Assembly (NCBI GenBank): GCA_038851035.1 | Contig: JAWCLH010000005.1 | Span: 51,251 to 115,250 of the forward strand | DNA: 64,000 nt | Direction: 5' to 3' | Source: Thermoplasmata archaeon | GTDB taxonomy: Archaea > Thermoplasmatota > DTKX01 > VGTL01 | Shown: in pieces, positions 2,942 through 54,040 of the stretch | Numbering within the stretch: the first letter of the stretch is position 1 | How the letters are laid out: the number at the start of each line of letters is the position of its first letter | Notes under the pieces: model-generated | The model's input: only the letters and a program-made list of their open reading frames with translations | Databases searched by the model: none | What the model was told of the DNA's origin: nothing | Made by a program: the position numbers and the translations under genes

Positions 2942-4180
2942 TCAGCTCAACCGCACCTGCTCCATGTTACGGGGAAGGAGGACCTCGAATTCTTTCTCCA
3001 GCTCTGCGGCCAGCTTCTCCCGGCTGTCCCCGTGGAACAGAACGACCTTCTCTGGGCCGCAGCCCTTAGCGAATTCGATGAGCTCGGAGTGCCCGCAATG
3101 GGCAGAGAAGTCGTAGAACTCGACCCCTGGCTCTATTTCCTCCGGACCCTCCCCGAGGTCGATTCTGCCCTTCTCGAGCAGGAGGCGACCATTGGTGCCC
3201 TCGACCTGATATCCGGTGATAAAGACCGCACTCCTCCTATCGCGCTTGAGGAGCCTCAGATACTCGAGGATTGGCCCGCCCTCTAGCATCCCTCCGGTTG
3301 TGACCACGACCTCGCTCCGCGCCGCTGCGGCCCTGAGATGCTCACCCCTGACGTATCTCACTCTCTTGTCAGCCTTACGGAGGAGTTCTGGGTCCCTGAG
3401 AAACCCGGGCTGCTCCAGCAGGATGCGGTTGACCTTCTGGCCCATGCCGTCGAGCCAGATGTTGACGCGGAGGCGGAGCAGCATCATCAGGACCTCCTGC
3501 GTGCGGCCGACCGCGAAAACGGGAATGAGAGCTTTACCGCCGCGCTCCACGACCTCTTCCACCCTTTCGAGAAACCTCTTCTCTGTCTCTTTCCTGTCTG
3601 GATGCTCCCTGCCCGCGTATGTGCTTTCCATGAAAAGAATGTCGCATCTGCGGGGCCGCGTCCCGCGGACGAGATGAGTGTCTGAAGTGTTGATGTCTCC
3701 AGTGAAGAGAACTTTCCTGCTCCCTTCGAGCTCAAACATTGCGGCGCCAGGTATGTGGCCTGCGGGACGGAGCCTGACCTCGACCCCGTTGACATCCCGG
3801 TTGCTACCGAAGCCGGCGATATCGAAGTTCTCCTGAACCCGCTCGATATCGGAGGAGCCGTAGGGCAGGGTGTACCCCTCATTCCTCGCCACCTTCAGGC
3901 CGTCGTAGCAAAGGAGCTCTGACATCGCCTTTGTGGGCAGAGTGGCAAGGATAGGGGCGCCCGTGCGTGCGGGGAGCGAGGGCACGAGACCGGCGTGGTC
4001 CATATGAGCATGGCTGATGAGCACCAGGTCTGGCTCTAGCGCTGGTTCACGCGGGAACCGTGGGGGACGGCTAGGCGCGTAGCCATAGTCGCACAGGAAG
4101 CGCGCTCCATCCAGTGTGAGCTCGAGGGCTGCGCTGCCGACCTCGTTCGCACCGCCCAGGAATCGAAAGCTCAGGGCCAT
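2942..4180 (-). CDS. Metallo-beta-lactamase/beta-CASP ribonuclease (archaeal CPSF-like, short form without KH domains)
   Basis: 412 aa. HxHxDH motif (ISHAHMDHAG). Downstream beta-CASP-type conserved D/H residues and a C-terminal H motif (FSAHCGHSELIEF...VVLFHGD). Length matches the short aCPSF2-type enzymes. Confidence 0.7.
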   Translation of the reverse strand: MALSFRFLGGANEVGSAALELTLDGARFLCDYGYAPSRPPRFPREPALEPDLVLISHAHMDHAGLVPSLPARTGAPILATLPTKAMSELLCYDGLKVARNEGYTLPYGSSDIERVQENFDIAGFGSNRDVNGVEVRLRPAGHIPGAAMFELEGSRKVLFTGDINTSDTHLVRGTRPRRCDILFMESTYAGREHPDRKETEKRFLERVEEVVERGGKALIPVFAVGRTQEVLMMLLRLRVNIWLDGMGQKVNRILLEQPGFLRDPELLRKADKRVRYVRGEHLRAAAARSEVVVTTGGMLEGGPILEYLRLLKRDRRSAVFITGYQVEGTNGRLLLEKGRIDLGEGPEEIEPGVEFYDFSAHCGHSELIEFAKGCGPEKVVLFHGDSREKLAAELEKEFEVLLPRNMEQVRLS

Positions 4181-4369
4181 CGGTCTTGTATTCGGGTGTG
4201 GTTATTAAAGGTTTGCAGGCGACCTTAGAAGCATCTATACCCTTCTCCTGATATAATTCGGAGAAATAAAATCCGATACCTCTTCTAACCCCCTACCCAT
4301 TCCCGGTCTCAACTTTTTCCGAAAACAATTTGAACCCGCAGCGGCATTCTCTCCTGGAGCAGGCCATTG

Positions 4370-20071: not shown

Positions 20072-20144
20072 AGCCCCGTAGTGTAGAGGTCAATCATCCG
20101 GGGTCCTGCATCCCGGGACGGTGGTTCGAATCCACCCGGGGCTA
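20072..20144 (+). tRNA. tRNA-Gln-like gene (CUG at anticodon position), archaeal-type A73, no CCA, non-canonical anticodon loop; possibly a pseudogene
   Basis: Same acceptor stem as the upstream tRNA-Gln (AGCCCCG/CGGGGCT). T-arm GGTGG-TTCGAAT-CCACC, 6-7 bp anticodon stem CCGGGG/TCCCGG, loop TCCTGCA (C at position 33, C at 37 instead of U33/purine37). Discriminator A. Confidence 0.5.
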
Positions 20145-25570: not shown

Positions 25571-25721
25571 CTCCAGGGGCCCAGAGCCGCTGGAGGGAAT
25601 TGAACCCGAAACTTTGTCCCGTGCAACCTGTGAGGCTCAAAGTTTCATCAAAGCGGATAAATCCCAGGGGCCCCCTCCGGGGGCCCAGAGCCGCTGGAGG
25701 GAATTGAACCCTCGACCTACT
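25571..25721 (+). repeat. 45-bp direct repeat (25571-25617 and 25677-25721, one mismatch). The second copy is the 3' end of the tRNA-Thr gene plus its 3' flank; 59-bp spacer containing a 9-bp inverted repeat.
   Basis: ggggccccctcc(a/g)gggcccagagccgctggagggaattgaaccc occurs twice. Spacer has GAAACTTTG...CAAAGTTTC (25618-25626 and 25648-25656). Confidence 0.85.
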
Positions 25722-25821
25722 CCTGTTCGGCAAAGGACTCCTGGAGGCCTCATCCATACTCAGCCCCCCGGTGGATACCAAGGAGTCGCTCCACCACTGA
25801 GCCACAGCGGCATGGGCGGGC
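25699..25821 (-). tRNA. Intron-containing tRNA, most consistent with tRNA-Thr (GGU) carrying a 51-nt intron at the canonical 37/38 position
   Basis: Reverse strand: acceptor GCCGCTG/CAGCGGC, U73, D-arm GCTC-AGTGGTG-GAGC, T-arm GAGGG-TTCAATT-CCCTC, anticodon stem ACTCC...GGAGT interrupted by 51 nt. Only a 37/38 splice gives a legal loop, UUGGUAA. GCC start and U73 fit archaeal tRNA-Thr. No CCA. Confidence 0.55.
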
Positions 25822-41879: not shown

Positions 41880-42220
41880 GTGAGGAGTTCGCGAGGCTCT
41901 ACCCGCCCAAGAAGCCCTGATTCTCATTGTAGACCCGCTCCGATGGAATCAGAGCCCCCCGCGGGTCCATATCCAGAAAATCAGCGCGTAGCCGGTTGCG
42001 AGCATCGCCAGAGATATCAGCCACAGCAGCCTCATCAGCCTCTCTCGGCCCTCCGGGGTCCGGAGGGCCGGGGGCAGCCCCGGCTCTTCCCCGCCACCCG
42101 CATCGGTGCTCCTCACGGGGCCGCCCCTCGAGCCCGCGCTGCCTCTCCCGCCCCGCTCATCTCCCGTAATTCCCGAGCTCCCGCCGCTCCGGCCGCGCCC
42201 CGGCGCCCCGCCGGGCTCCA

Positions 42221-42838
42221 TCAGCCTTTGATTCTCTTCAGCCTGAATATGTTTTCCCTCTCTAGCTCCTCGAGGCGGAGGGATATGAAAGCAGCCGCCT
42301 CCTTAAGTTCTGGAATGACCTTGAACTCTAGGGCGTTGACCCGCCGGCGTGTCCGGTCTATCTCATCCAATAGCCTGCGTATCGTGGTCTCCACCTCGGC
42401 CGTTACTATAATTGTCTCGACGAGCTCCTCGTAGGCCCTAGCGGCCTCGTCGATTCTAGCGCTCGTACCGAGAATTCCGTACCCTCTTTCCCATAGCTTT
42501 TTCCTGACGCCGGATCCTTCTACGAGCGGTACAACCACGCCCATCACGTTTTTACTCTTCAGCCGAATTCTTGGCCTCTCCTTGATGGCAAAAGCGGCTG
42601 ACCTTACTGCCACGACCCCCTCCACCGCCATCGCTATTGCAATTTTCCTCTCAGCAGCTCTGTACTGCTCGATGAGCTGAGTCCTGAGGTTTTTGGCCCG
42701 GGCAAGCACCCTGAAGAACTCCATGATCAGGGTATCCCGCTTCATCTTCAGAAGCCGATGCCCTCTCTCCGAAAGGCGAATTTTCCTCTTCAGCTCCAGA
42801 AGCTCGGAGCGGGTCGGCTTCACCCTGTCCTTTATCAT
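42221..42838 (-). CDS. atpD: A1AO ATP synthase subunit D
   Basis: N-terminus MIKDRVKPTRSELLELKRKIRLSERGHRLLKMKRDTL is the conserved D-subunit start (start set at 42838). Coiled-coil rest. Confidence 0.85.
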   Translation of the reverse strand: MIKDRVKPTRSELLELKRKIRLSERGHRLLKMKRDTLIMEFFRVLARAKNLRTQLIEQYRAAERKIAIAMAVEGVVAVRSAAFAIKERPRIRLKSKNVMGVVVPLVEGSGVRKKLWERGYGILGTSARIDEAARAYEELVETIIVTAEVETTIRRLLDEIDRTRRRVNALEFKVIPELKEAAAFISLRLEELERENIFRLKRIKG

Positions 42839-42854
42839 CATCGACCGGCTCCTT

Positions 42855-44249
42855 TCACGCCTCAGCACCTTTTTTCCCGGAGTGAGCGGGATGATACCTC
42901 TCGATGAGGCTCCTGTCCATTCTGGTCAGCATCGCCTCGGGCAGGGTGGCGAGCAGCTCCCATGCGAGGTTGAGAGTGAAGTCGATGTCCCTGTCCTCCT
43001 CCCTTCCCTGCCGAACGAACCTGTCCTCGAACATATCGGCGAACTGAAGGAACTTCTTGTCGCGATCCGACAGGGCCTCCTTGCCGACGATCGCCGCAAG
43101 CCCCCGGAGGTCGCTGCCCTCTGCGTAGGCTGCGTAGAGCTGGTCCGAGACCGCCTTGTGGTCCTCTCGGGTCATCCCCTTACCGATACCTAGATTCATG
43201 AGCCTCGAGAGCGAGGGTAGGACGTTGATCGGGGGATAGATGCCCCTCCTGTGCAGCTCCCTCGATATCACGAGCTGCCCCTCGGTGATGTAACCCGTAA
43301 GGTCAGGTATCGGGTGGGTGATGTCGTCGCCGGGCATCGTAAGGATAGGGAACTGGGTGATCGTGCCCTTTCTGCCCTTTATTTTCCCAGCCCTCTCGTA
43401 TATGGTGGCGAGGTCGGTGTACATGTAGCCCGGGTAGCCTTGCCTGCCCGGCACCTCCTCCCTCGCGGCGCCGATCTGCCTCAAGGCCTCGCAGTAGTTG
43501 GTCATGTCGGTGAGGATGACGAGCACGTGCATATCGTGCTGGTAAGCCAGGTACTCGGCCGCGGTCAAAGCCAACCTCGGGGTAATCAGCCTCTCCACGG
43601 CCGGGTCGTCGGCGAGATTCAGAAAGACCACCGCTCTCTTGAGAGCCCCCGTCCTCTCGAAATCGTGCATGAAGAACTGGGCCTCCTCGTTTGTTATGCC
43701 CATCGCCGCAAAAATCACCGCGAACTCGCCCGTCCCCCCCGGGACGCGGGCCTGCCTCGCGATCTGGAGTGCGATGTCGTTGTGGGGGAGCCCGGACCCT
43801 GAGAATATGGGGAGCTTCTGGCCCCGGACAAGGGTGTTCATTCCGTCAATCGTCGAGATCCCGGTCTGGATGAACTCCCGTGGCGAGTCACGGGCCCAAG
43901 GGTTTATGGCGGACCCTAGGATTTCTAGGCGCTCCTCGGGAACTATCCTAGGTCCCCCGTCGAGCGGCTCTCCCCCGCCGGAGAGAATTCTTCCAAGAAT
44001 ATCAGGTGAGACGGGCAGTTTGAGCGTCTCTCCAAGGAATGTGACACCGCAGGATCTGTCCATTCCCGCCGTGCCCTCGAATATCTGGACTACCACAACC
44101 TCCCTCGAGGTGTCAAGCACCTGGCCCTTCCTCCTGCTACCGTCGGGGAGGGAAACCCTGACGAGTTCTCCGTAGCCCACGGGTTCCGTCCTCTCAACGA
44201 AAATCAGAGGCCCGGCAATCCTGCTCACGGTTCTGTACTCCCTAGTCAT
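42855..44249 (-). CDS. atpB: A1AO ATP synthase subunit B (regulatory)
   Basis: 464 aa. No true P-loop, but conserved B-subunit blocks ([37 protein letters not shown]). Confidence 0.9.
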
Positions 44250-44253
44250 CCAC

Positions 44254-47200
44254 TCACTCCTCCTCCTCCGCCTTTCGCTTCCTGAATGGCACTGTGAGGT
44301 AAATCACGAGAAAAGCCATGAGTCCTAACAGCAAGCCCAGCAGCGCCCAGGAGTGCCAGCCGACGACCCCCTGTAGGTTAGATGGCGGAGGCGAGCGAAC
44401 CTCGACCATGACAGAAGCCTCTGAAAAGTCGTAGCCGTCGCTAGTCTTCAGCACTACCCTGTGCTGCCCTGGCCCGGTGAATACATAAACCGCCTCAGGG
44501 CCGTTGACCTGCCGGCCCTCTATATCCCACAGAAATTCGAGGTTTTCCGGGGGGTCGTCCGGGTCCGTGGTTCCGCTGGCGCTGAACTTAAACTCTTCGC
44601 CGACCAGCCCAACGAGCTTTCCCGCGCTGATGCTGGCCGTTGGTGGCAGGTTGCGCACCGTCACGTTGAGGGATGTGGAGGAGAGGGCGCCCTCATCGTC
44701 CCTGACGGACAGGGTCACCGTGAAATTGCCCTTTTTTGTGAATGTGTGGGCGACAGTGGCCCCCGAGGCTCTGCGTCCGTCCCCGAAGTCCCAGAGGTGC
44801 TCCACCACGGCCCCGTCGGGGTCGAAGGATATTGAGTTGAATTTAAATTCGGTCCTCACGTCCCCGTTCCTCCTTTTTGCGACAGCCTCAGCAACCGGCG
44901 GTGCGTTCAGGACCCTGACAACCACATCAGGGCTCCACCCGCTCTCCGCCCCTGAGTCGTCCAGAACCCTCAGCCTTGCCCGGTAGCTCCCTTTCTGGCT
45001 GTAGCGGTGATGGGTTACTGGCTCCGCCACCCAACCCGATTCCTCACCGTCACCGAAATCGAAGAAATAGTGGGTGATGCGGCCGTCGTCAACGGAGCGT
45101 TCTCCGGAGAACTCAAGCCACTCCCAAACCGCCACTGTTGCGGGGGTCGCGTGGAGCACCGGCTCCGGCCGGGCGTTTAAATAGACGTCGGATGAGAGGG
45201 AGTTGTCACCCTCATCACTCTCTACGACTTCTCCGGCCGGGTCCACAACCACTGTGACGAAATGCCTGCCCGGAGAGGCGATGAGCCGAATGGATATCTC
45301 AGCGTTCCCTCCGGGAAACAGCCCGGAACAGCCCGCGCGTCCGAGAAGAGATGGCACCGTATCCTCCAGCCAGAACTCCACCTCAAAGGGCCCTGCGTTA
45401 GCCCTGCCTGTGTTCTCGACCACAGCGCTCAGGGAGGTGGTCTCTCCGCCCGTGGCGCCGGCCGGAACCGAGAGCGAGCGGGGCATGACGCGGAGATTTG
45501 GGAGGAGAGGTTGCGGTGGAAGGATTCTCAGCATTGTGGACAAGATATTATTGCTCTCGTTCCTTTCGTAGAATCGGTCGTCGGGATCTACCCAAGCCAC
45601 TAGTTCATGCTCTCCCACGCTCAGTGAGAAAGGAGCACTCAGAGAGACCCGCCCATGCGATGGTAGGGCCACTGCATCGCTCCACACCGGCGCACCATCC
45701 GCTAGGAGCATCACACCCAGCAGCTCCGCATCCATCGAGGATTCGCTAGAGAGACCGATTCTTGCCACAATCGCTCCACCCTCTATTGGCTCGCCCTGCA
45801 ACTCAAATCCGGATAACGAGAAGTCCAGGGAGGCCTGTGCGGTCGGGGCCTCATTATTCGATGTGGCGATGTCCAGAAGCCATCCGTCTGGATCTAGCTT
45901 TACAGTGTCCGCTTCCCGGTCAATCTCAAACCGAAGGACCGTGACACGATCCTTTCTGAGCGAGGCCCGGGGAAAAAAGGCGATGGTCTCTCCTTCATTC
46001 ATCACCGAGAGGTCGATTGGAAGGAGAGGCTCCGCGGCCCTGCTCTCCACCACAACCTCGACCATCTGCTTCCCTTCCTCTCCCTGGAATACAGTCGCAC
46101 AGGCGATGGCGCAGTCAAGCCTCTCCTGAGAGAACATCCAAAAAAAGAAGAACACTGAGAGGTCGCGTCCGGTCGAGCTCTGGATGTGCTCCATGAAGTC
46201 GTAGAAGTTGACCACCTTTCCCGAGAATTTCTGATGGAAGGAGGAGAGGCTTCTATTGAACTCCGCGCTGCCGATTAAGTAACGGAGCATGTGCAACACC
46301 CACGGCCCCTTGTAGCCAGCGAGGTCGTAGTTGGTCCCTATCAGCAGGGGCTCCGGGCCGCCGGGAGCGACGAAAAGCTCAATGTACCTCTGCCTGCAGA
46401 ACTCGAGGTAGCCCCGGGAGCCGTAAACCTCCATCTCGTACATCGCCTCACTGTATCCGGCGAAGCCCTCCCTCAGCCAGCTCTCCCCCGCCCCATCAGC
46501 CTCTATATCCACGCCCCACCACTGGTGGCCGAGCTCGTGGGAGAGGAGTCTATAGGGAAGGGGGCCGTCGAAATTGCGGGAAGAGAGCCAGAGCATGGAC
46601 GGAAGGCTCTGGCCCCATGCAGCAAACCGGCCAGGCACCTCCACGACCGTAAGATCGCGGAAGCCTGGGGGACCAAAAAGGGAGGTATAGAACTCCACAA
46701 TCCGGGCCATCTCGGAAGCATAGGAGGGGGCGGCTGGGGCGTGTTCCGGTCTGAAATAAAGGCGATAGATATGGTCGGAGGTCTGGTGCTCGGTGAATAC
46801 GTAGCGCCCGACCGTGAATGAGAGCCCGATAAGAGGTATCCGCGATTCCCATATATACGTGACCGTGGCATTGGGGGTCTCATGAACTTCCCCGACGAGT
46901 TCACCGGGTCCAATAGCCATCTTTCCCTCGGGAAGGGTCAGGGATAGGGTGGCCCGGGCCCGCTCCATCCTCTCGTCCCCGGGGAAGTACCAGCCGTAGG
47001 ACCTGACCCAGCTCCCTTCGGGACCGATGTAGTCCCAGTAGCTCTCGCCCCCGTCCTCGCTGTAGGCCACTTCTCCGGAGTAGTTCAGGGTAATGTTGAG
47101 CAATGTTCCTGCGCCCACCTCCCGGCCGAGCGAGACGGCGATGAAGGGGTCGAAAGAGCGCTCCACGCTCAGATTCCCGAGGGAAGGCTCGTGGGCCTCT

Positions 47201-47469
47201 GTCACGTTCATCGCGGGGTTGAGCTTCAGGAATACTCTGGAGGTGTTCTGCAGCGCCTGTATCGACACTACCGCGCTGACGCTCAGGGCGTGGCCCGCCT
47301 CATCCACCACCGCTCGGGCGCGAATCTCGAGCAGCCTGGACACGCACCCCTCCTCCCTCCTGAGCTCTGTCGCTGGGGTCCGGGCGTCGCCTCCCCCCGA
47401 CCTCGGGGGAAACGGGGCGCACACCGAGGCGAGCAGAACGAGCATAGCCACCGATTCTCTCAGCATCAT
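44254..47469 (-). CDS. Secreted M1-family (gluzincin) aminopeptidase with CARDB/PKD domains and C-terminal TM anchor, located inside the ATP synthase operon
   Basis: 1071 aa. Signal peptide. HEXXH plus downstream Glu ([16 protein letters not shown]...[15 protein letters not shown]), with an upstream G-A-M-E-N-like region. CARDB-like and PKD repeats ([22 protein letters not shown]). [20 protein letters not shown] plus [10 protein letters not shown] tail. There is a 16-bp gap to atpA and a 4-bp gap to atpB, all on the same strand. Confidence 0.8.
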
Positions 47470-47485
47470 CCTGAACCCCGCACCA

Positions 47486-49258
47486 TCACCTGCCCATCGC
47501 CGAGAACTCGGACGCCATCAGCTCCATCACCTTCTTCATCTCGCTCTCGAAGTCCCTCTCGAATCTGGACCTAGCCAGAAGCTCACTCGAGCGCACGGCC
47601 GTGATTCTCGACAGAGGAGCGCCGGCTTCGAGGGCCTGGAACGCGAGTTCCGAGAACCTCCTGATGGCCGAGAGGAGAGCGTACTGCCGGGCCATCGAGC
47701 AGAAGGAGTCGACCTCGTGGTAGGCGTTTTGCTGGAGGAATATCTCCCTTATCATCCTGGCGACCTCGAGCAGGAGCTGCTGCTCATCGGGGAGGGCGTC
47801 CGACCCGACGAGCTGGACAATCTCCTGGAGTTCCGACTCTCTTTGTAGGGTCTCCATCGCCCAGGCCCTAAGCGCGGGCCAGTCTTTTGAGACGTTCTGT
47901 TCGAACCATTTATCAAGGGTGGCTGTGTAGAGGCTGTAGCTGGTCAGCCAGTTGATTGCCGGGAAGTGCCGCCGCTGGGCGAGCTTAGCGTCGAGCGCCC
48001 AGAAGACCTTGACGATTCTCAGCGTGGCCTGGGTAACGGGCTCGGAGAAGTCGCCGCCCGGCGGGGACACGGCGCCTACTATGGTGACGGACCCGTCGAG
48101 GTCGCACAGCGTCTGGACCCTCCCCGCCCTTTCATAAAAAGCGGATAACTTGGCGGAGAGGTAGGCGGGGTAGCCTTCCTCCCCTGGCATCTCCTCCAGC
48201 CTAGAGGATATTTCCCTCAGCGCCTCCGCCCATCGCGAGGTCGAGTCCGCCATCAGAGATACGTTCCACCCCATGTCCCTGTAGTACTCCGCTATTGTCA
48301 CTCCCGTGTAGACGCTCGCCTCTCTCGCCGCCACCGGCATGTTAGAGGTGTTCGCGATGAGGACCGTCCGGTCCATCAGGGGAGCCCCTGTCCTTGGGTC
48401 CTGTAGGCGCGGGAACTCTGTCAGAACCTCGGTCATCTCGTTTCCCCTCTCGCCGCAGCCCACATAGACCACTATTTCCGAATCGCTCCACTTGGATAGT
48501 TGGTGCTGGGTGACTGTCTTCCCGCTGCCGAACGGCCCCGGTATCGCGGCAGTGCCGCCCTTGGCAACAGGGAAGAGCGTGTCCAGAATTCTCTGGCCGG
48601 TTATCAGGGGGACGTCGGGCATCCTCCTCTTCTTGAACGGCCGCCCCAGCCTTACGGGCCACCTCTGCATGAGCCTGAGGGGTGTGCCGTCCGAGAGTGT
48701 CGCAATCACATCTTCTACCGTATACCGGCCGGCGCTGATGCTCGTGAGTGTTCCGGAGACGTTCGGCGGAACAAGAATTCGATGCTCTATGAACTTCGTC
48801 TCCTGAACAGTACCAATTATCTGCCCGGGCCGGACATAATCCCCCGCCTTCACCCTAGGTAGGAACTCCCAGCGCCTCTGGCGATCCAGGCCTGGCGCGC
48901 TCACGCCCCTCCGGATAAAATCGCCCTTGAGCTCTCTCAGAACTGGCAGGGGCCGCTGAATTCCATCGTAAATAGACTTCAACAGCCCAGGACCAAGCTC
49001 CACCATCAGCGGTGAGCCCGTATTCACGACCTCCTCTCCCGGCCGAATTCCTGAGGTGTCCTCATAGACCTGAATCAGGCTCCTCGGACCCTCAAGACCT
49101 ATGACCTCTCCCATCAGCCTCTCCCGGCCGACCAGAACCACGTCGTACATCTTTGGCTTGATGCCCTCGGCGGTGACCACCGGCCCGGAGACCCTGTAGA
49201 CCTCGCCCTTCTCCTCCATCCCCTGACCTCCGAATCTATTCAATCCACTTACTTCCAT
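47486..49258 (-). CDS. atpA: A1AO ATP synthase subunit A (catalytic)
   Basis: 590 aa. Walker [20 protein letters not shown]. Non-homologous insert region typical of A/V-type A subunits. No intein. Confidence 0.9.
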
Positions 49259-49566
49259 AAATCCACACCGACGACGTGCAATATCCTCTCCCTTAGATCC
49301 ACCTCCTCTATCTTTCCGATGGCGATTACCACCGGCTCCACGCTCTCTGCCATCGATTTCCTCAGAGAAGGGGAAATCCTGCGAAAGTCAGTGTCCATGA
49401 CGACCAGAATGCCTACTTCCCTATCCCCCATCGCCTTCTCCATCAGCCTCTCCATCTCCTCGACGCTGTCGCCCTTCACCTCGTAGACCTTGCGAACACC
49501 GGCGAGCCTGAACCCGGTGACGAACTCTTCCCTCCCCACAACCGCCAGCTCCATATCAGCCCTCAC
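49249..49566 (-). CDS. atpF: A1AO ATP synthase subunit F
   Basis: 105 aa ([20 protein letters not shown]...). Typical F-subunit N-terminus. Overlaps neighbours by a few nt. Confidence 0.7.
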
Positions 49567-50642
49567 GTGAAAAGCAGGCCCCGGATGACCTCTTCCGGGA
49601 GGCCGCTCTGCTTGCCTCTGGCTATTGTTCTCAAATTGTCCACTTCTATTTTTTTTCTCAGCAAATAGTCCATTACCGGGATTACGGAGAGGGGATATGT
49701 GTGTGAGAACCGCCTGGCCCTCTCTAGGAGATACCTGTCGAGCGCCAAGAAAACCTCATGGAGCGACCCGGAGTTTTTGATCCGAGTGGCCGGCTCCCTA
49801 ATGCTCTCATAAATTTTCGTTCCCACGAGACACTGTAGGAGAGATTCGATGCCCTCCGCAGCCACGAGCTTCCTGAGTTTCGATGGGTCGAGCTCCTCCC
49901 CCCCATCGACTAACAGTTCCCGGGCTGCCTCGGGGCTCGATGCCTCGGCCTTCAGCCTGAATAATGTCTTGAGATTGACAATGTCAGTCTCGACTCTCAG
50001 GAACTGGAGAAAGAGACGATTGGCCTGCGTTTTCTCTGGCACAAACCGGAGGAGGCGCTCGTAGTAGCTCTTCTCCAGGGCGTTCTCCAGGTCGGCTAGA
50101 ACTGGCACCTCTCCTTTCTCTCCAAGTAGGCGTAGCAGAAGTGGCTCGAAGTCGTGCTCCCTCCCCTCCCGCTTCAGCACAGAAATCATCTCGTTTATGT
50201 CAGCGGCTGCGAACAATGCCGCGAAGTCCTCCTTATTAAAAACGCCTGCCGGCACAATGTCTCCCTCAACTTCACTCCACGAAATCCCCGCGAGCCGGCC
50301 GCGCAGTACGGTCTTGAAGTTCCATACATCCCAGCGATTGAGGTACCTGCGCACAAGCTCCCTCAGCTCTCCCCTTGTAAAACCGATGATAGTATTGTAG
50401 GTCCTAGCGAGGTTGAGATATGTCGCTCTCTCAATGAGGTCGACCCCCCCATAGCGCCCAGAGAGCTCCTCCACCTCGCTCCGGTATTGCCCTTCGCCGA
50501 TGAACCTGCCGATTTCAGAGAGTCCCATCTTCAGCAGCCTCGGGTAGGTATCTGGGGGCAGGAGGAGGGCTCTCCTAGCCTTCACGCGGGCGCATGTGTA
50601 AGCATAGTTGCCCTCGTGGCCGGCTTCACCGGAGAGTGTCAT
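49563..50642 (-). CDS. atpC: A1AO ATP synthase subunit C
   Basis: 359 aa helical protein in the canonical position between E and F. Family-level call by position and size. Confidence 0.7.
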   Translation of the reverse strand: MTLSGEAGHEGNYAYTCARVKARRALLLPPDTYPRLLKMGLSEIGRFIGEGQYRSEVEELSGRYGGVDLIERATYLNLARTYNTIIGFTRGELRELVRRYLNRWDVWNFKTVLRGRLAGISWSEVEGDIVPAGVFNKEDFAALFAAADINEMISVLKREGREHDFEPLLLRLLGEKGEVPVLADLENALEKSYYERLLRFVPEKTQANRLFLQFLRVETDIVNLKTLFRLKAEASSPEAARELLVDGGEELDPSKLRKLVAAEGIESLLQCLVGTKIYESIREPATRIKNSGSLHEVFLALDRYLLERARRFSHTYPLSVIPVMDYLLRKKIEVDNLRTIARGKQSGLPEEVIRGLLFT

Positions 50643-50657
50643 GATTCCTCCCTATCT

Positions 50658-51209
50658 TCATTTTGGGAAAAGGAGAGTGTGGACCTCTTTCATTGTGCTC
50701 TCCACAACTTCCTTAAAGATGGTATCATAGGTCAGGTCGATCCTCACAGAAGCGTCCGGGCTCTCGAGAATAAGGCCTCCGAGGCAGTTGACGGTGCCGG
50801 CGTAGGCCGAGCCGAGCCGCCTTCTGAGAAACTCCTCATTTCTCGGGCACGAGAGGACCCTATAGCCCGGCGGGACCTTTTTCAGCAGCCTCTCCAGAAT
50901 CGCCTCCTCCTCGGCGCCCTGGAGCGCCGAGATCCTCCGGCGGGCCGCTTCCGCCGCCGCCTCCAGCATCTCCCTTTCCATCCGGAGGCGGTTCCGCTTC
51001 GCCTCGAGCTCCGCGCTCGCCAGCTCGCGCACCCTGAGCTGGGCCGCCTCCTTCTCGGCCTCGGCCAGCCGCTTCTCTCTCAGCTCCCGCGCCCTCTCCC
51101 GGGCCTCCGAGAGAATTTTTTCTCTCTCGGCGCGGGCCTCGGCGAGTATTGAGGTGGCGCGCCTCTCGCCCTCCGCGAGAATGTCCTCGACGACCTGCTC
51201 TAGACCCAT
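50658..51209 (-). CDS. atpE: A1AO ATP synthase subunit E
   Basis: 183 aa. N-terminal charged coiled coil (ILAEARAEREKILSEARERARE) and C-terminal globular part. Canonical operon position. Confidence 0.7.
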   Translation of the reverse strand: MGLEQVVEDILAEGERRATSILAEARAEREKILSEARERARELREKRLAEAEKEAAQLRVRELASAELEAKRNRLRMEREMLEAAAEAARRRISALQGAEEEAILERLLKKVPPGYRVLSCPRNEEFLRRRLGSAYAGTVNCLGGLILESPDASVRIDLTYDTIFKEVVESTMKEVHTLLFPK

Positions 51210-51228: not shown

Positions 51229-51450
51229 TCACACTTTCCCCATCAGCATGTAGGCGATGACGAGGCCGAAGAGAACGATTGTCTCGGGGACGACCATGTA
51301 CACGATGCCCCTGACGAACATCTTCTCGTTCTCCGCGGTCGCGCCGACCGCCGCTGCACCAATTTCCTTCTGCGCCCACGCCGTGCCGATTCCCGTCCCG
51401 GCTATCGCTATCCCGGCCGCTAAGGCGACCAAACCACTTCCGATGTCCAT
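51229..51450 (-). CDS. atpK: A1AO ATP synthase proteolipid subunit K (c subunit, single hairpin)
   Basis: 73 aa MDIGSGLVALAAGIAIAGTGIGTAWAQKEIGAAAVGATAENEKMFVRGIVYMVVPETIVLFGLVIAYMLMGKV. Two TM helices, with the ion-binding Glu in helix 2 (VPETIVL). The longer track ORF 51229..51921 is rejected upstream of this Met. Confidence 0.8.
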   Translation of the reverse strand: MDIGSGLVALAAGIAIAGTGIGTAWAQKEIGAAAVGATAENEKMFVRGIVYMVVPETIVLFGLVIAYMLMGKV

Positions 51451-51464
51451 TTTTCCCACACTCC

Positions 51465-53567
51465 TCAGGTCTCTGTCGTATATCTCCTCCAGTATCCGAA
51501 AGGTCTGAACTTGATTCCCCCTCCCTTGTAGAATTTGGTGAAGAACTCGACGTAATTGAGCCTGAGGGCCTGAATTCCCGACGAGATGGAGCCCAATACA
51601 AAGACGAGCATGTGGGCGAGTATTAGGAGCGCCCAGCCAGCGAGGGCGAGGCCAATGCTCCCGCCGGTGACGAGCGGGAGGAGGATGCTGTTGAATGCGA
51701 ATGCCATCGCCCCCTTCGCCACGCCTATCGCCGCCAGCCTGGTGTACGAGAGGATGTTCGAGAGCGCGCTGAACACCTCCATTAGAGCCAGGGGGCCCTC
51801 GCCGATGGCCGCGAGGGCGACGCCGGGCACAAGGGATGCGACGGAGGCGTATGGAATAAGTAGGCCGATGCCAGGGTCCCAGTACGCGCTGAAGGGCGCT
51901 AGCGGACCCGCCCAGAGCCACGCGCCGAGAGAGTTCTTATCGGCGAACTTGAGGATGATCAGCCCGAAGCCGAAAACGATCATGAACCAGCCCACCTTAC
52001 CCGCCGCGCGCCGCCGGCTGTGCTGCCACTCAGTTACAGCGCCAAGCAGGTGTCCCAGGCATAGGTGCACCGAGCCCGCCACGACCGAGAAGACCATCAG
52101 GGTCGAGAGGCCGGAGGCCTCGAGCTTGTGGATGGAGGCCTGAACCGGGATGTCGAGGCCGGTGAGGCTCTCCCAGCTGACCTCACCGCCCCCCTCGCCG
52201 TGTGCGGCGGAGTGGAAGGGGACTCCGAACGCTTCGGCGAACACGAGGGCTCCGAATATGGAGGCGAACAGACCGGCCGCGAGAATGTAGGCCCCGAGCT
52301 CGGAAAAGCCCTCCCATTTCTTTAGCTTCGTCCTGAATATCAGTCCGGTCGCGATGAGCAGTGCCCCGTACCCGAGGTCCCCTATCATCAGTCCGAAGAA
52401 GAACGGGAAAACTAGCGCCAGGAGCACCGTCGGGTCGAGCTCTTTATAGCTGGGAAGGGAGAACAGCTCTATGAGGGCCTCGAAGGGCCTGAAGGGCCGT
52501 GGGTTCTTCAGCGCCACCGGAACTCCCGCGTATATGTCGTCCTCTCCCTCCCCCCTCTCGACCTTTCTTCCCTGCCCCTTCGCCCCAATAGCATCCTTTT
52601 TCCCCTCCGCACGTTCTGTGGTCCCGCGGGCCTCCTCCAGCCACTCCTCCTCCTCCAGCGCCTCTATATGGATGTGGTCTCCCGCGGCCCTCCTGAGGGC
52701 CTCCGCGGTCCTCTCCAGCTCGTCCGTTGGGACCCAGCCCTCGATGACGAAGGCCGTGTCCGTGGTTGCGAATCTCAGCGGGGCCTCCGCCTTCTCGATT
52801 TCAATCGCAAGCTCCTCGGAGCATGCCAGAATCTCGTCCCTGTATTCCTCCCTCGCCAGGGCCAGCCTCCTCTTGACCGCCTCGAGCCTCTCTCGCTTTT
52901 GTTCGATTTCCCGCTCGAGGGCGGCAAGAATTCTGGATGGGTAGCCCTCCCCCTCCGGAGCCCTGAGCTCGGTGAAGTCGTGGCGCGCGAGGACCCTCTC
53001 CACCTCCTCCCTCTTCGACTTGTCGACGAAGAGCGCAAAGGGCCCCTCGGGGCCCCGGGTGAACAGCTCGAACCTGTCCGTCACGCGCTCCAGTTCCCGC
53101 TCGAAACCGGCGCGGGCCTTTCCAGTGAAGACCGCCAGGCTGTCGTAGGGCCTGTAGGCCTTGAGGGGAAGGGGCAGCTCGGCGAAAGAGAGTAGAGAGG
53201 CCCTCCTCTTCTCAAGCTCGCGCAGGCCGCTCTCGAGCTCCTGCCTCTCCGCCTCCAGCCCCCTGACCTCTCTCTCAAGATTCGAAAGCAGCGCGTCGAG
53301 CTTTTTCCGCGCCGTGGCAGAGGGAAGTGGATTATGCGTGGGACCCTCTTCCACGCCCAGAATTTTGGAAGCGGCGCGCAGCCTGAGCAGCCTCTCGGAG
53401 CTCTCGGCGGAGCCCTCCATCGGTGTCCCGATTACGAACCCCTCGTACTCCTCCCGGTAGTCGGTGATGTGCATGGAGCGCTGGGCGTGGAGAGTCTCGA
53501 CGACGCTCCTCATACGCTCCCTGGGGCCCGCGACCACGACGCGGCTCATCCGTCTCGGCCTAAGCAT
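51465..53567 (-). CDS. atpI: A1AO ATP synthase subunit I (a subunit)
   Basis: 700 aa. N-terminal cytoplasmic coiled-coil half plus C-terminal about 8-TM half, with a conserved Arg-containing helix near the C-terminus. Confidence 0.8.
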   Translation of the reverse strand: MLRPRRMSRVVVAGPRERMRSVVETLHAQRSMHITDYREEYEGFVIGTPMEGSAESSERLLRLRAASKILGVEEGPTHNPLPSATARKKLDALLSNLEREVRGLEAERQELESGLRELEKRRASLLSFAELPLPLKAYRPYDSLAVFTGKARAGFERELERVTDRFELFTRGPEGPFALFVDKSKREEVERVLARHDFTELRAPEGEGYPSRILAALEREIEQKRERLEAVKRRLALAREEYRDEILACSEELAIEIEKAEAPLRFATTDTAFVIEGWVPTDELERTAEALRRAAGDHIHIEALEEEEWLEEARGTTERAEGKKDAIGAKGQGRKVERGEGEDDIYAGVPVALKNPRPFRPFEALIELFSLPSYKELDPTVLLALVFPFFFGLMIGDLGYGALLIATGLIFRTKLKKWEGFSELGAYILAAGLFASIFGALVFAEAFGVPFHSAAHGEGGGEVSWESLTGLDIPVQASIHKLEASGLSTLMVFSVVAGSVHLCLGHLLGAVTEWQHSRRRAAGKVGWFMIVFGFGLIILKFADKNSLGAWLWAGPLAPFSAYWDPGIGLLIPYASVASLVPGVALAAIGEGPLALMEVFSALSNILSYTRLAAIGVAKGAMAFAFNSILLPLVTGGSIGLALAGWALLILAHMLVFVLGSISSGIQALRLNYVEFFTKFYKGGGIKFRPFGYWRRYTTET

Positions 53568-53886
53568 TCAGCCGCCTCAGGAACTCGCTGTGGATGAATT
53601 CCGCCGCCTCCCTCACCCTGGCGGAGGCCATCTCCCTCCTGTCTGCGAGGCTCTTCTGGGCCTGGGCCATCATCCGAGCCCTCTCGTCCTGAATTGCCTT
53701 TTCGGCCGCGCGGAGCCGCTCCGCGGCCTCCGCCTCGGCCTGGGCTGTGGCCTCCTCAAGAATTCTTCGGGCCTCGCGGCGGGCCTCCTGAACTATTCTC
53801 TCCTTCTCACCCAGCGCGGCCTCCTCCGCCTCCCTCCTCCGTGCCTCCGCCTCGCGTATTCTGCTGAGCACCTCCTCGCGAGCCAA
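53560..53886 (-). CDS. atpH: A1AO ATP synthase subunit H
   Basis: 108 aa, highly charged Ala/Glu/Arg-rich helix (EAEARRREAEEAALGEKERIVQEARREARRILEEA). First gene of the operon. Confidence 0.6.
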   Translation of the reverse strand: MAREEVLSRIREAEARRREAEEAALGEKERIVQEARREARRILEEATAQAEAEAAERLRAAEKAIQDERARMMAQAQKSLADRREMASARVREAAEFIHSEFLRRLNA

Positions 53887-54040
53887 GACTACAACCTCCC
53901 CACGGACAAGGCGGAATTCCCTGCTCGGGCGGATTATATTGTTTGTGTTGAAATAGTTTGTGTTGGGGGCTCCGCTCTGGGAGCAGCCCGTTCGGACCGG
54001 CCCCCGCTAGCTTAATACTGGGCACCGCAATCATCTCTCC

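Follow-up and report, generated by a model that had tools for sequence, protein, structure and literature searches.

The 64-kb stretch of DNA analysed here (the window) carries on its minus strand the genes for all nine subunits of an A1AO ATP synthase, in canonical order and tightly packed (Table 1). Pfam and the gene calls of GCA_038870335.1 (contig JAWCPG010000002.1) give the order as atpH-I-K-E-C-F-A, then an ORF of 1071 aa, then atpB-D. This ORF of 3216 nt, which begins with ATG and which we name PEP, intervenes where atpA would otherwise immediately precede atpB, and the ORFs that flank it match AtpA and AtpB in Pfam. PEP itself matches Peptidase_M1 (residues 308-442, E = 1.8e-11), CARDB (residues 657-759, E = 8e-18) and three PKD domains (E = 8e-44).

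The atpA stop codon (TGA, 47486-47488) is separated by 16 nt from the PEP ATG at 47469, and the PEP stop codon (TGA, 44254-44256) by 4 nt from the atpB ATG at 44249. AtpA is 590 aa long when read from its first ATG and 577 aa long when read from the annotated start at 49219. No rRNA genes were found in the 64-kb window. The original prediction for this locus had described a gene of 1071 aa on the same strand, fitted between atpA and atpB with intergenic gaps of 16 and 4 nt that leave no space for a promoter or terminator of its own, in an operon of otherwise intact H-I-K-E-C-F-A-B-D order; the ORF and junction readings, together with Pfam and the gene calls, agree with it on all of these points, coordinates included.

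Table 1. Features of the A1AO operon and of PEP, in window coordinates (residue numbers are those of PEP)
Feature	Position	Strand	Details and basis
AT-rich promoter-like element (AAACTATTTCAACACAAACAATATAAT region) upstream of atpH	53935..53960	-	putative promoter
atpH	53560..53886	-	108 aa, TTG start; position and gene call; NCBIfam AhaH match weak, below curated cut-off
atpI	51465..53567	-	700 aa; Pfam V_ATPase_I
atpK, proteolipid	51229..51450	-	73 aa; gene call with Pfam ATP-synt_C (L001 6020-6241, mapped to window)
atpE	50658..51209	-	Pfam vATP-synt_E
atpC	49563..50642	-	Pfam vATP-synt_AC39
atpF	49249..49566	-	Pfam ATP-synt_F
atpA, catalytic subunit	47486..49258	-	Pfam ATP-synt_ab_N, Xtn, ab, VA_C
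atpA-PEP spacer, 16 nt, tggtgcggggttcagg	47470..47485	-	weak SD-like motif only
PEP, predicted membrane-anchored divergent M1-family zinc metallopeptidase	44254..47469	-	1071 aa
Signal-peptide-like N-terminus, residues 1-27	47389..47469	-	sequence, hydropathy, model helix 3-14; putative Sec signal
M1 domains I-III, residues 44-545	45835..47340	-	AF2 model, Foldseek, PDB sequence matches 6a8z/6iff
GXMEN-equivalent G280-R-F-A-A284	46618..46632	-	Glu position is Ala or Ser in 19/19 members
Zinc site HELGH (311-315) ... WLREGFAGY (E334)	46468..46539	-	family alignment
Two CARDB-like Ig-fold domains, residues 546-766	45172..45834	-	Pfam CARDB 657-759; model beta-sandwiches
Three PKD domains, residues 767-1027	44389..45171	-	Pfam PKD_4 and PKD, three stretches; ColH PKD matches
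C-terminal TM helix, residues 1039-1059	44293..44355	-	model, hydropathy, conservation periodicity
GAGGAGGAGGAG, codons of C-terminal EEEE, atpB Shine-Dalgarno (SD)	44257..44268	-	conserved in all orthologous loci
atpB	42855..44249	-	464 aa; Pfam
atpD	42221..42868	-	annotated start 42841; Pfam ATP-synt_D
Conserved small ORF	41949..42221	-	90 aa, one TM helix; start overlaps atpD stop

Predicted architecture and catalytic site of PEP

The AF2 model of PEP has a mean pLDDT of 78, and the top 50 Foldseek matches are all M1 aminopeptidases (best E = 2e-27; IRAP/ERAP/PSA at E ~1e-27 over ~540 aligned columns). Its M1 domains I-III comprise an N-terminal beta domain, a thermolysin-like catalytic domain and the beta-sandwich domain III, and in the Ig-like region that follows PDB entry 2l0d matches the family profile at positions 561-652. 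Because a hydrophobic N-terminus is combined with a single C-terminal TM helix, after which comes the tail RKRKAEEEE, hydropathy and the model speak for an ectoprotein anchored in the membrane in type I fashion, with a short tail in the cytosol; the predicted topology and the Pfam matches are in keeping with the membrane-anchored extracellular protein with PKD/CARDB domains that had been proposed. Each family protein carries 8-22 N-glycosylation sequons, which also speak for this topology. The TM helix has one conserved face (W1041, L1044, L1047, L1048, M1051, A1052 and L1054, with P1061 after it), and the periodicity of its conservation peaks at 100-105 degrees (P = 0.007 by permutation). Two other modes of anchoring were rejected on inspection of the alignment: the signal region has no conserved Cys, as a lipoprotein would require, and there is no PGF motif of the PGF-CTERM type.

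We found that the zinc site of M1 gluzincins, HEXXH-X18-E, is present in PEP. H311, E312 and H315 are invariant and E334 occurs in 18 of the 19 family members, the third zinc ligand being replaced by Gln in member P0007; the Peptidase_M1 score is 44.5 bits (cut-off 27.7), and, at a mean pairwise identity of 63%, the catalytic domain is better conserved than any other region of the protein. Other catalytic motifs deviate. The Glu of the GXMEN exopeptidase motif, which binds the alpha-amino group of the substrate, is missing from all 19 members, and the GAMENWG of puromycin-sensitive aminopeptidase aligns with GRFAAWG in PEP. The position of the canonical Y-x-K-G Tyr (Y386) is occupied by Y in ten members, F in five, T in two and S in two; five residues upstream lies an invariant Tyr, Y381, which could supply the transition-state Tyr. 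Beyond residue 447 the model contains no helix of at least 10 residues other than the TM helix, and no ERAP1_C Pfam match was found in PEP; helical domain IV is missing.

On motif grounds a canonical aminopeptidase N was rejected, and the NCBIfam pepN equivalogs score 20-25 bits on PEP against cut-offs of ~600-700. The original prediction had called the protein an M1 aminopeptidase. The M1 gluzincin part of that name is upheld by HEXXH-X18-E and the M1 fold, whereas 'aminopeptidase' is unsupported, since the GXMEN Glu is absent (0/19), the Tyr is not conserved (10/19) and domain IV is lacking. PEP is more likely a divergent, surface-tethered metallopeptidase. Its catalytic activity is not assured, because the GXMEN Glu is missing, the canonical Tyr is not conserved, and the nearest relatives outside the operon lack HEXXH.

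Conservation of position and evolutionary history

The contexts of PEP orthologues were examined on more than 20 contigs drawn from NCBI, ENA, JGI and Logan. Wherever a contig extends far enough to show it, the orthologue (38-58% identical) sits between atpA and atpB without exception, and the order atpA-PEP-atpB(-atpD) was seen in L002, L003, the P0013 contig, L004, L085-L097, L110, L114-L116 and L117/L118, the AtpA of L114-L116 being found on 12 contigs. In the 78 other A/V-ATPase loci that we sampled, atpB follows straight after atpA (<200 nt) in every case; none has a PEP-type gene between the two, nor anything else, and PEP is absent from the other lineages sampled. The synteny comparison that the original prediction had called for is answered on both sides, and its view of the locus as an unusual operon disruption holds.

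The boundary of the clade was set by AtpA protein searches and gene-context look-ups, with an AtpA scan of a genome collection (best 70% identity among the matches listed) as outgroup panel. Carriers of PEP have AtpA at least 75% identical, and in the closest non-carriers, with AtpA 72-73% identical, A and B adjoin. The PEP family is small and discrete: it falls into four 50%-identity clusters, after which E drops from 1e-132 to 1e-49.

Pairwise identities of PEP and of AtpB co-vary (Spearman 0.89) and yield the same three subgroups. PEP, at 42-56% identity against 81-91% for AtpA/B, evolves 4-5 times faster. The GC content of PEP (0.604) matches that of atpA/B (0.606-0.609), as does its synonymous codon use that of the atp genes (r = 0.955), a comparison also proposed at the outset. 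Because identities co-vary and composition matches, the sequences point to a single old insertion followed by vertical inheritance. The word 'inserted', if read as a recent disruption, does not fit an old feature of the clade that has been vertically inherited.

A mobile element or recent horizontal insertion was rejected: no flanking repeats were found at the PEP boundaries, no recombinase is present among the neighbouring gene calls, and neither GC nor codon usage departs from that of the atp genes. Taken separately, the C-terminal half of PEP has a lower codon-usage correlation (r = 0.68), and short atp genes give similar values. A full-text search of the literature found no description of an interrupted atpA-atpB pair, nor of an archaeal ATPase operon that contains a peptidase or PKD gene. 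PEP between atpA and atpB is, as far as this search goes, without published description, and it has been kept through long divergence in one Thermoplasmata lineage.

Expression, function and alternative readings

In every locus the last codons of PEP are GAG GAG GAG GA(A/G), followed by a stop codon (GAGGAGGAGGA(A/G)-stop) and, after 1-4 nt, by the start of atpB. The codons of the conserved EEE(E) tail of the protein thus contain the ribosome-binding site of atpB. In outgroups the atpB SD lies within the 3' end of atpA. The atpA-PEP spacer measures 8-25 nt in orthologues. We searched for archaeal signals in the form of AT-rich boxes and T-runs, setting aside sigma-70 promoter and intrinsic-terminator models, which are not archaeal. 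The element upstream of atpH is the sole intergenic AT-rich box of the operon region; no such box occurs within ~100 nt upstream of the PEP or atpB start, none is conserved across 12 orthologous loci, and comparison of these loci revealed no conserved T-run near either PEP junction. Within the window, the PEP gene does contain a few TATA-like hexamers as well as T5, T7 and T6 runs. These runs might bring about partial termination in an archaeon; orthologues do not conserve them. The search for internal promoters and terminators that the original prediction had suggested has, in short, returned signals of the window only and no conserved ones. Given gaps of 16 and 4 nt, the lack of conserved promoter-like or terminator-like motifs and the atpB SD inside PEP, the gene is probably co-transcribed with the atp genes, as the original prediction had presumed, and the position of the SD in its last codons indicates coupled translation on one mRNA.

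Our preferred reading, to which we assign a probability of roughly 0.6, is that PEP encodes a surface M1 metallopeptidase which derives from one insertion, has descended vertically, is co-expressed with the ATP synthase and is probably not a subunit of it. The gene would have entered the A1AO operon once, between atpA and atpB, in an ancestor of the Thermoplasmata/Thermoplasmatota lineage. A single H-I-K-E-C-F-A-PEP-B-D mRNA would run from the promoter upstream of atpH, and a weak ribosome-binding site would start the translation of PEP 8-25 nt past the atpA stop. The protein would leave the cell by way of its N-terminal signal sequence and stay anchored in the membrane through the one C-terminal helix. 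Two CARDB-like and three PKD domains, five Ig-like domains in all, would form a stalk for its M1 head outside the cell, where extracellular peptides or proteins are its most likely substrates. As it has neither the GXMEN Glu nor a capping domain IV, the enzyme is probably open-clefted and not a strict aminopeptidase. The 3' end of PEP would have taken over the role that the 3' end of atpA has in other archaea, and an SD in its last codons, with a stop 1-4 nt before atpB, would therefore keep the translation of atpB tightly coupled. PEP may have been retained because peptide-scavenging cells profit from it, because its loss would require the atpB ribosome-binding site to be built anew, or for both reasons.

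Other readings of the locus bear on whether PEP is an enzyme, how it is expressed and what it binds. It is unlikely, on balance, that PEP is a catalytically impaired pseudo-peptidase serving in binding, adhesion or as a cell-envelope scaffold. Such a role would suit the loss of the GXMEN Glu throughout the family, the canonical Tyr in just ten members, the Gln in P0007, the lack of HEXXH in the acidobacterial M1-TPR proteins (25-28% identical) that are nearest to the family from outside, and the long Ig-like stalk with its many sequons, which recalls archaeal surface proteins; it sits poorly with three invariant zinc-site residues and E334 in all members but one, with a catalytic domain more conserved than any other part of PEP, and with an invariant Y381 that may do the work of the transition-state Tyr. 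Quite unlikely, too, is independent expression of PEP within the operon, with levels of peptidase and ATP synthase uncoupled by a promoter in the 3' part of atpA, by one for atpB-D in the 3' part of PEP, by both, or by partial termination inside PEP. Archaeal promoters can occur within coding sequence, making one inside atpA or PEP conceivable, and the T-tracts and TATA-like hexamers of the window gene might serve these ends; however, the 16- and 4-nt gaps, the absence of AT-rich boxes upstream of either start here and of conserved ones in the 12 loci, the variability of the T-runs and the embedded atpB SD all argue for a shared transcript. An assembly or binning artefact joining two unrelated loci, which the original prediction had named as its own refutation, found no support here beyond the origin of the window in a metagenome-assembled genome; it is vanishingly improbable, as the same junction layout recurs in every orthologue-bearing contig, more than 20 of them independently assembled from four sources, at 38-100% protein identity.

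The conserved face of the TM helix goes beyond what the preferred reading requires, and hints at a specific membrane partner. The helices of Ac45/ATP6AP1 and ATP6AP2 sit within the c-ring. By analogy, PEP might serve the A1AO ATP synthase of this lineage alone as an accessory component or assembly partner, its C-terminal helix packed against or inside AO (the K ring or subunit I) and its ectodomain facing outward: a true membrane-sector component, evolved independently as a counterpart of those two proteins, with a zinc-peptidase head outside. We regard this as very unlikely. It would account for the mid-operon position of the gene between head-subunit genes throughout the clade and for its translational coupling to atpB, for a type I orientation that leaves a short tail in the cytosol, and for an alpha-helical periodicity with one invariant face (P = 0.007), as helix-helix packing predicts; Ac45/ATP6AP1 and ATP6AP2 are, moreover, accepted subunits of Vo (PMC10352029). 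However, PEP shows no match to the ATP-synt_S1 or renin receptor Pfam families at E <= 0.01, only to M1, CARDB and PKD, and it evolves 4-5 times faster than AtpA/B. Its conserved EEE tail is accounted for by the atpB SD, the helix face is equally compatible with self-association, and in the loci sampled all other archaea manage without such a subunit. Were the idea correct, peptide harvesting and the proton/ATP machinery would be joined physically, beyond transcription.

The adjacency of atpA and atpB is among the most stable in archaea and in bacteria with V-type enzymes, and here a whole lineage keeps a large, unrelated gene for a secreted protein between them while that protein has diverged to ~40% identity. 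The locus shows that the operon can take a 3.2-kb interruption if the translational link to atpB is restored, here by a ribosome-binding site in the C-terminal codons of the intruder, and it offers a natural case for studying how A3B3 stoichiometry may be kept by translation rather than by adjacency. As a small, discrete M1 subfamily that has kept the zinc site and lost the exopeptidase motif and domain IV, PEP may inform how M1 specificity changes. The locus also raises the question of whether accessory type I membrane proteins, like those of eukaryotic V-ATPases, occur with some archaeal rotary ATPases too. As a clean synapomorphy, the insertion is usable as a metagenome marker of the Thermoplasmatota clade that carries it.

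Comparison with known systems

PEP shares the fold of domains I-III with the M1 gluzincin aminopeptidases (PepN, ERAP1/2, IRAP and puromycin-sensitive; Foldseek E ~1e-27), as well as HEXXH-X18-E with WLxEGFA. It differs from them in having G/x-x-F/Y-A/S-A, with no Glu, in place of GAMEN, in not conserving the YxKG Tyr, in bearing CARDB/PKD domains and a TM anchor instead of domain IV, and in its predicted extracellular, membrane-tethered state. The best sequence match among solved structures is the two-domain M1 peptidase of Deinococcus radiodurans (6a8z, 6iff; E = 2.4e-14 with the window protein and 1.2e-15 with the family profile), which at 474 residues is likewise too short for a C-terminal helical domain; its length leaves no space for the Ig-like stalk and membrane anchor that PEP has. 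The Deinococcus enzyme is soluble and is not known to belong to an ATPase operon. Of the non-orthologous proteins in the databases, the acidobacterial M1-TPR proteins (P0021-P0029; 25-28% identity) are the nearest relatives, and they also lack GXMEN; in contrast to PEP they lack HEXXH, have TPR repeats in place of CARDB/PKD and are without atp neighbours.

The order of a zinc metallopeptidase head followed by an Ig-like array is also that of ColH/ColG and, in their PKD/CARDB domains, archaeal surface-layer proteins are comparable (PKD matches at E = 1e-17 to 1e-29), whereas the catalytic domain of clostridial collagenase ColH belongs to family M9 and that of PEP to M1. Ac45/ATP6AP1 and ATP6AP2 (PMC10352029) resemble the predicted PEP protein in type I topology, with a single TM helix and a short tail at the C-terminal end of a large beta-rich domain on the extracytoplasmic side, and in their genetic link to a rotary A/V-type ATPase; with no detectable homology between them, the likeness is one of analogy only.

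With the archaeal A1AO operon at large, the locus has in common its nine subunit genes in canonical order, on one strand and tightly packed. The reference operon is of the ahaHIKECFABD type, that of Methanosarcina mazei. The locus departs from that pattern in the 3.2-kb non-ATPase gene that parts atpA from atpB (0/78 elsewhere), and returns to it in the coupling of atpB to the ORF upstream through an SD in that ORF's last codons.

Junctions and expression of the operon

The A1AO ATP synthase operon of the window carries, between atpA and atpB, a 1071-codon ORF that we refer to as PEP. H and K are placed by the gene calls of the record to which the window belongs, GCA_038870335.1 (JAWCPG010000002.1), a MAG labelled 'Thermoplasmata archaeon'. 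The PEP ATG lies 16 nt past the atpA stop and the atpB ATG 4 nt past the PEP stop; ORF, junction and Pfam analysis upheld the coordinates, strand, gaps and domain content with which the original prediction had described a secreted peptidase gene at this site.

Features of the window and of the PEP protein (nucleotide positions unless marked as residues)
Feature	Position	Strand	Basis or remark
atpH	53560-53886	-	source-record gene call; weak NCBIfam AhaH match
atpI	51465-53567	-	Pfam
atpK (73-aa proteolipid)	51229-51450	-	source-record gene call
atpE	50658-51209	-	Pfam
atpC	49563-50642	-	Pfam
atpF	49249-49566	-	Pfam
atpA	47486-49258	-	Pfam
PEP	44254-47469	-	ORF
PEP, M1 half	45835-47469	-	
PEP, CARDB/PKD half	44254-45834	-	
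atpB	42855-44249	-	Pfam
atpD	42221-42868	-	Pfam
Small ORF	41949-42221	-	begins at atpD stop, ATGA overlap
TATA-like element	53935-53960		AT-rich, upstream of atpH
T7 run	46146-46152	-	PEP coding strand; part of FFFFW motif
T6 run	45978-45983	-	PEP coding strand
T5 run	46679-46683	-	PEP coding strand
tRNA match	25689-25811	-	Rfam, 123 nt
tRNA-Gln(CTG)	20072-20144	+	ARAGORN
N-terminal hydrophobic helix	residues 3-14		AlphaFold2
Beta domain	residues 44-240		AlphaFold2
Helical catalytic domain	residues 241-447		AlphaFold2
Peptidase_M1	residues 308-442		Pfam
Beta-sandwich	residues 448-545		AlphaFold2
Five more beta-sandwich domains	residues 546-1027		AlphaFold2
CARDB	residues 657-759		Pfam
Three PKD domains			Pfam
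One helix	residues 1039-1059		AlphaFold2
Disordered basic/acidic tail	after residue 1059		AlphaFold2

In every orthologous locus PEP ends in GAG GAG GAG GA(A/G) or GAC GAG GAG GAA, and its stop codon is followed by 1-4 nt and then the atpB start (ATG, GTG or TTG). The segment GAGGAGGA includes GGAGG about 6 nt ahead of that start, and is thus a well-placed Shine-Dalgarno (SD) sequence for atpB. As the atpB SD lies within the last codons of atpA in A/V-ATPase loci that lack PEP (outgroups; stop-to-start distance 0-20 nt) and within those of PEP in the carriers, PEP seems to have taken over the role of atpA in coupling atpB translation. The encoded C-terminus is EEE or EEEE in 19 of 19 aligned clusters, an acidic tail for which the RNA offers the most economical explanation. 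Between the atpA stop and the PEP start there are 8-25 nt with weak or variable SD-like motifs, which suggests that PEP may be translated less than atpB.

The original prediction had presumed cotranscription. The sole intergenic AT-rich TATA-like element is the one ahead of atpH, and a comparison of 12 loci over the 160 nt ahead of atpB showed no conserved AT-rich box or T-run. T-runs can serve as archaeal termination signals; the T7, T6 and T5 runs within the window PEP are not conserved in orthologues. Given the junction layout and this lack of conserved promoter- or terminator-like signals, co-transcription of PEP with the atp genes is the best reading of the sequence, and co-expression with the ATP synthase is likely.

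The small ORF behind atpD has counterparts in other loci (L002 15423-15551, L003 15289-15492, L004 10299-10463, L110 7913-8071, L114 14971-15171 and L111 11910-12086), and its C-terminal ~45 residues, which form one TM helix, are conserved across the clade and one outgroup (...EGR[EA]RL..[IL]W..SL.....GY.LIFWI[WF].RGG[LI]). Neither Pfam nor NCBIfam matches it, and the ORF could encode a small, unannotated membrane protein of the A-ATPase operon. Elsewhere in the window, the 123-nt tRNA match, not reported by ARAGORN, is probably an intron-containing archaeal tRNA; the tRNA-Gln(CTG), a second one, is missing from the Rfam gathering list.

Distribution and inheritance of the arrangement

A protein search recovered 18 more clusters of full-length PEP homologues (1022-1150 aa, 42-56% identity, identical domain set), below which there is a gap in matches down to E 1e-45. 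Exhaustive HMMER against 1.84 billion cluster representatives gave four 50%-identity clusters before E jumps from 1e-132 to 1e-49, which confirms a small and discrete family. All readable contexts have the order atpA-PEP-atpB: L002, L003, L004, the contig of cluster P0013, thirteen metagenome loci (L085-L097), L110, L117 (where a 1111-aa PEP ORF begins 10 nt past atpA), L118, and L114-L116, whose AtpA occurs on 12 contigs. Both flanks are visible on 17 contigs; three others stop within PEP after atpA and two start within it ahead of atpB. No orthologue at another site was found in any readable context, nor were atp genes found near more distant M1 relatives (≤32% identity).

For comparison we used, among the matches listed, 80 A/V-ATPase loci from species-representative genomes (including Methanosarcinales, Archaeoglobi, Halobacteria, Poseidoniales, Methanomassiliicoccales, other Thermoplasmata, Micrarchaeota, Thaumarchaeota, Firmicutes and Thermus), to which the two nearest PEP-less AtpA relatives were added. 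With sufficient contig, atpB lies <200 nt behind atpA in 78 of 78 loci (median 25 nt, alignment end to alignment end), and none of the 78 has a PEP homologue. The AtpA search places the boundary between L110 (75% AtpA identity), which has PEP, and L111 and L112 (72-73%), which lack it and in which A and B abut or overlap. PEP is thus confirmed as a conserved, clade-defining break in atpA-atpB adjacency. Its ingredients, the A1AO operon and the M1 peptidase, are known; full-text searches found no description of the combined arrangement.

An assembly artefact, or a feature private to one genome, is ruled out by the recurrence of the arrangement in every readable orthologue context. A recent insertion, as the original prediction might be read, is not borne out. 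Across ten loci, PEP and AtpB pairwise identities are strongly rank-correlated (Spearman 0.89) with three coinciding subgroups, and the rank correlation with AtpD is 0.86; PEP changes more quickly than the atp genes do, with 42-79% identity where AtpB has 84-98%. The composition of the window PEP matches that of the atp genes, its GC (0.604) and GC3 (0.73) falling inside their range and its synonymous codon use correlating with theirs at r = 0.955. There are no repeats at its boundaries and no recombinase gene among its neighbours. The simplest history is a single ancient insertion followed by vertical descent.

Composition differs between the two halves of PEP: GC3 is 0.70 in the CARDB/PKD half vs 0.76 in the M1 half, and the codon-use correlation with atp genes is 0.68 vs 0.94. 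Most carriers (L002, L003, L004, L114, L117) share an opposite-strand block downstream of atpD (Methyltrn_RNA_2, AAA_16-TPR, SRP54, DUF7121). At that place the window has other genes, for an Arf-like GTPase and for a metallophosphoesterase; gene order beyond the operon is thus broken in its sublineage, with operon and insertion intact. In orthologues on the P0013 contig and in L117 (11748-15083), the signal sequence is followed by a long N-terminal extension of low complexity (total 1111-1150 aa); in some such orthologues gene callers pick a later start, leaving a false ~300-nt gap behind atpA. In one metagenome contig (L095, ~3699-4347) the alignment ends ~190 residues early and the missing C-terminal part (TM helix, GAGGAGGAATGA before atpB) apparently resumes in another frame; this may be a frameshift in a decaying copy or a sequencing error. 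The atpA of L004 (1768-5022, = L088) encodes 1084 aa with an intein (Pfam Intein_splicing and LAGLIDADG_3) that is absent from the window atpA.

Nature of the PEP protein

The AlphaFold2 model, built from the 19-sequence alignment, has a mean pLDDT of 78. In Foldseek against the PDB, the best 50 matches are all M1 aminopeptidases (IRAP, ERAP1/2, puromycin-sensitive aminopeptidase), the top ones at E 1e-25 to 2e-27 over ~540 columns corresponding to domains I-III; the closest solved structure by sequence is a short M1, the 474-residue zinc metalloprotease of Deinococcus radiodurans (6a8z, 6iff). The signal-like N-terminus and the single strongly hydrophobic C-terminal segment, together with N-glycosylation sequons that number 8-22 in each family member, support the prediction of an extracellular, membrane-tethered protein.

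Conservation within PEP is highest in the catalytic domain (63% mean pairwise identity). The zinc site is intact and conserved: H311, E312 and H315 are invariant in the 19 members, 18 of which also have WLxEGFAGY with E334. The earlier label of aminopeptidase finds no support. GAMENWG aligns to GRFAAWG, with Ala or Ser at the Glu position in 19 of 19; only 10 of the 19 have Tyr in the column of the canonical YxKG Tyr, whereas Y381, which precedes it by five residues, never varies; and Pfam and the model show no helical domain IV, the part that shuts the cleft of four-domain M1 enzymes. All three speak against a canonical aminopeptidase, and NCBIfam pepN equivalog scores are well under cut-offs. 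We class PEP as a divergent M1-family zinc metallopeptidase that is probably active and is unlikely to be a strict aminopeptidase; in its nearest relatives beyond the family, acidobacterial M1-TPR proteins, HEXXH is wholly lost.

Comparison with V-ATPase accessory subunits

Conservation along the TM helix is periodic, peaking at 100-105 degrees (permutation p = 0.007), with one invariant or nearly invariant face (W1041, L1044, L1047, L1048, M1051, A1052, L1054); P1061, past the helix, is also invariant. A plain lipid anchor does not require a conserved face, and the pattern suggests that the helix may pack on another, its own or a partner's. The helices of Ac45/ATP6AP1 and ATP6AP2 sit in the c-ring. 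Both proteins are type I membrane subunits of eukaryotic V-ATPases with large luminal domains (PMC10352029). The topology and operon position of PEP make an analogous role conceivable; Pfam gave no homology to either protein, and we regard such a component of the ATP synthase as very improbable. Were PEP nevertheless part of the enzyme, as Ac45/ATP6AP1 and ATP6AP2 are of theirs, the finding would gain much in interest.
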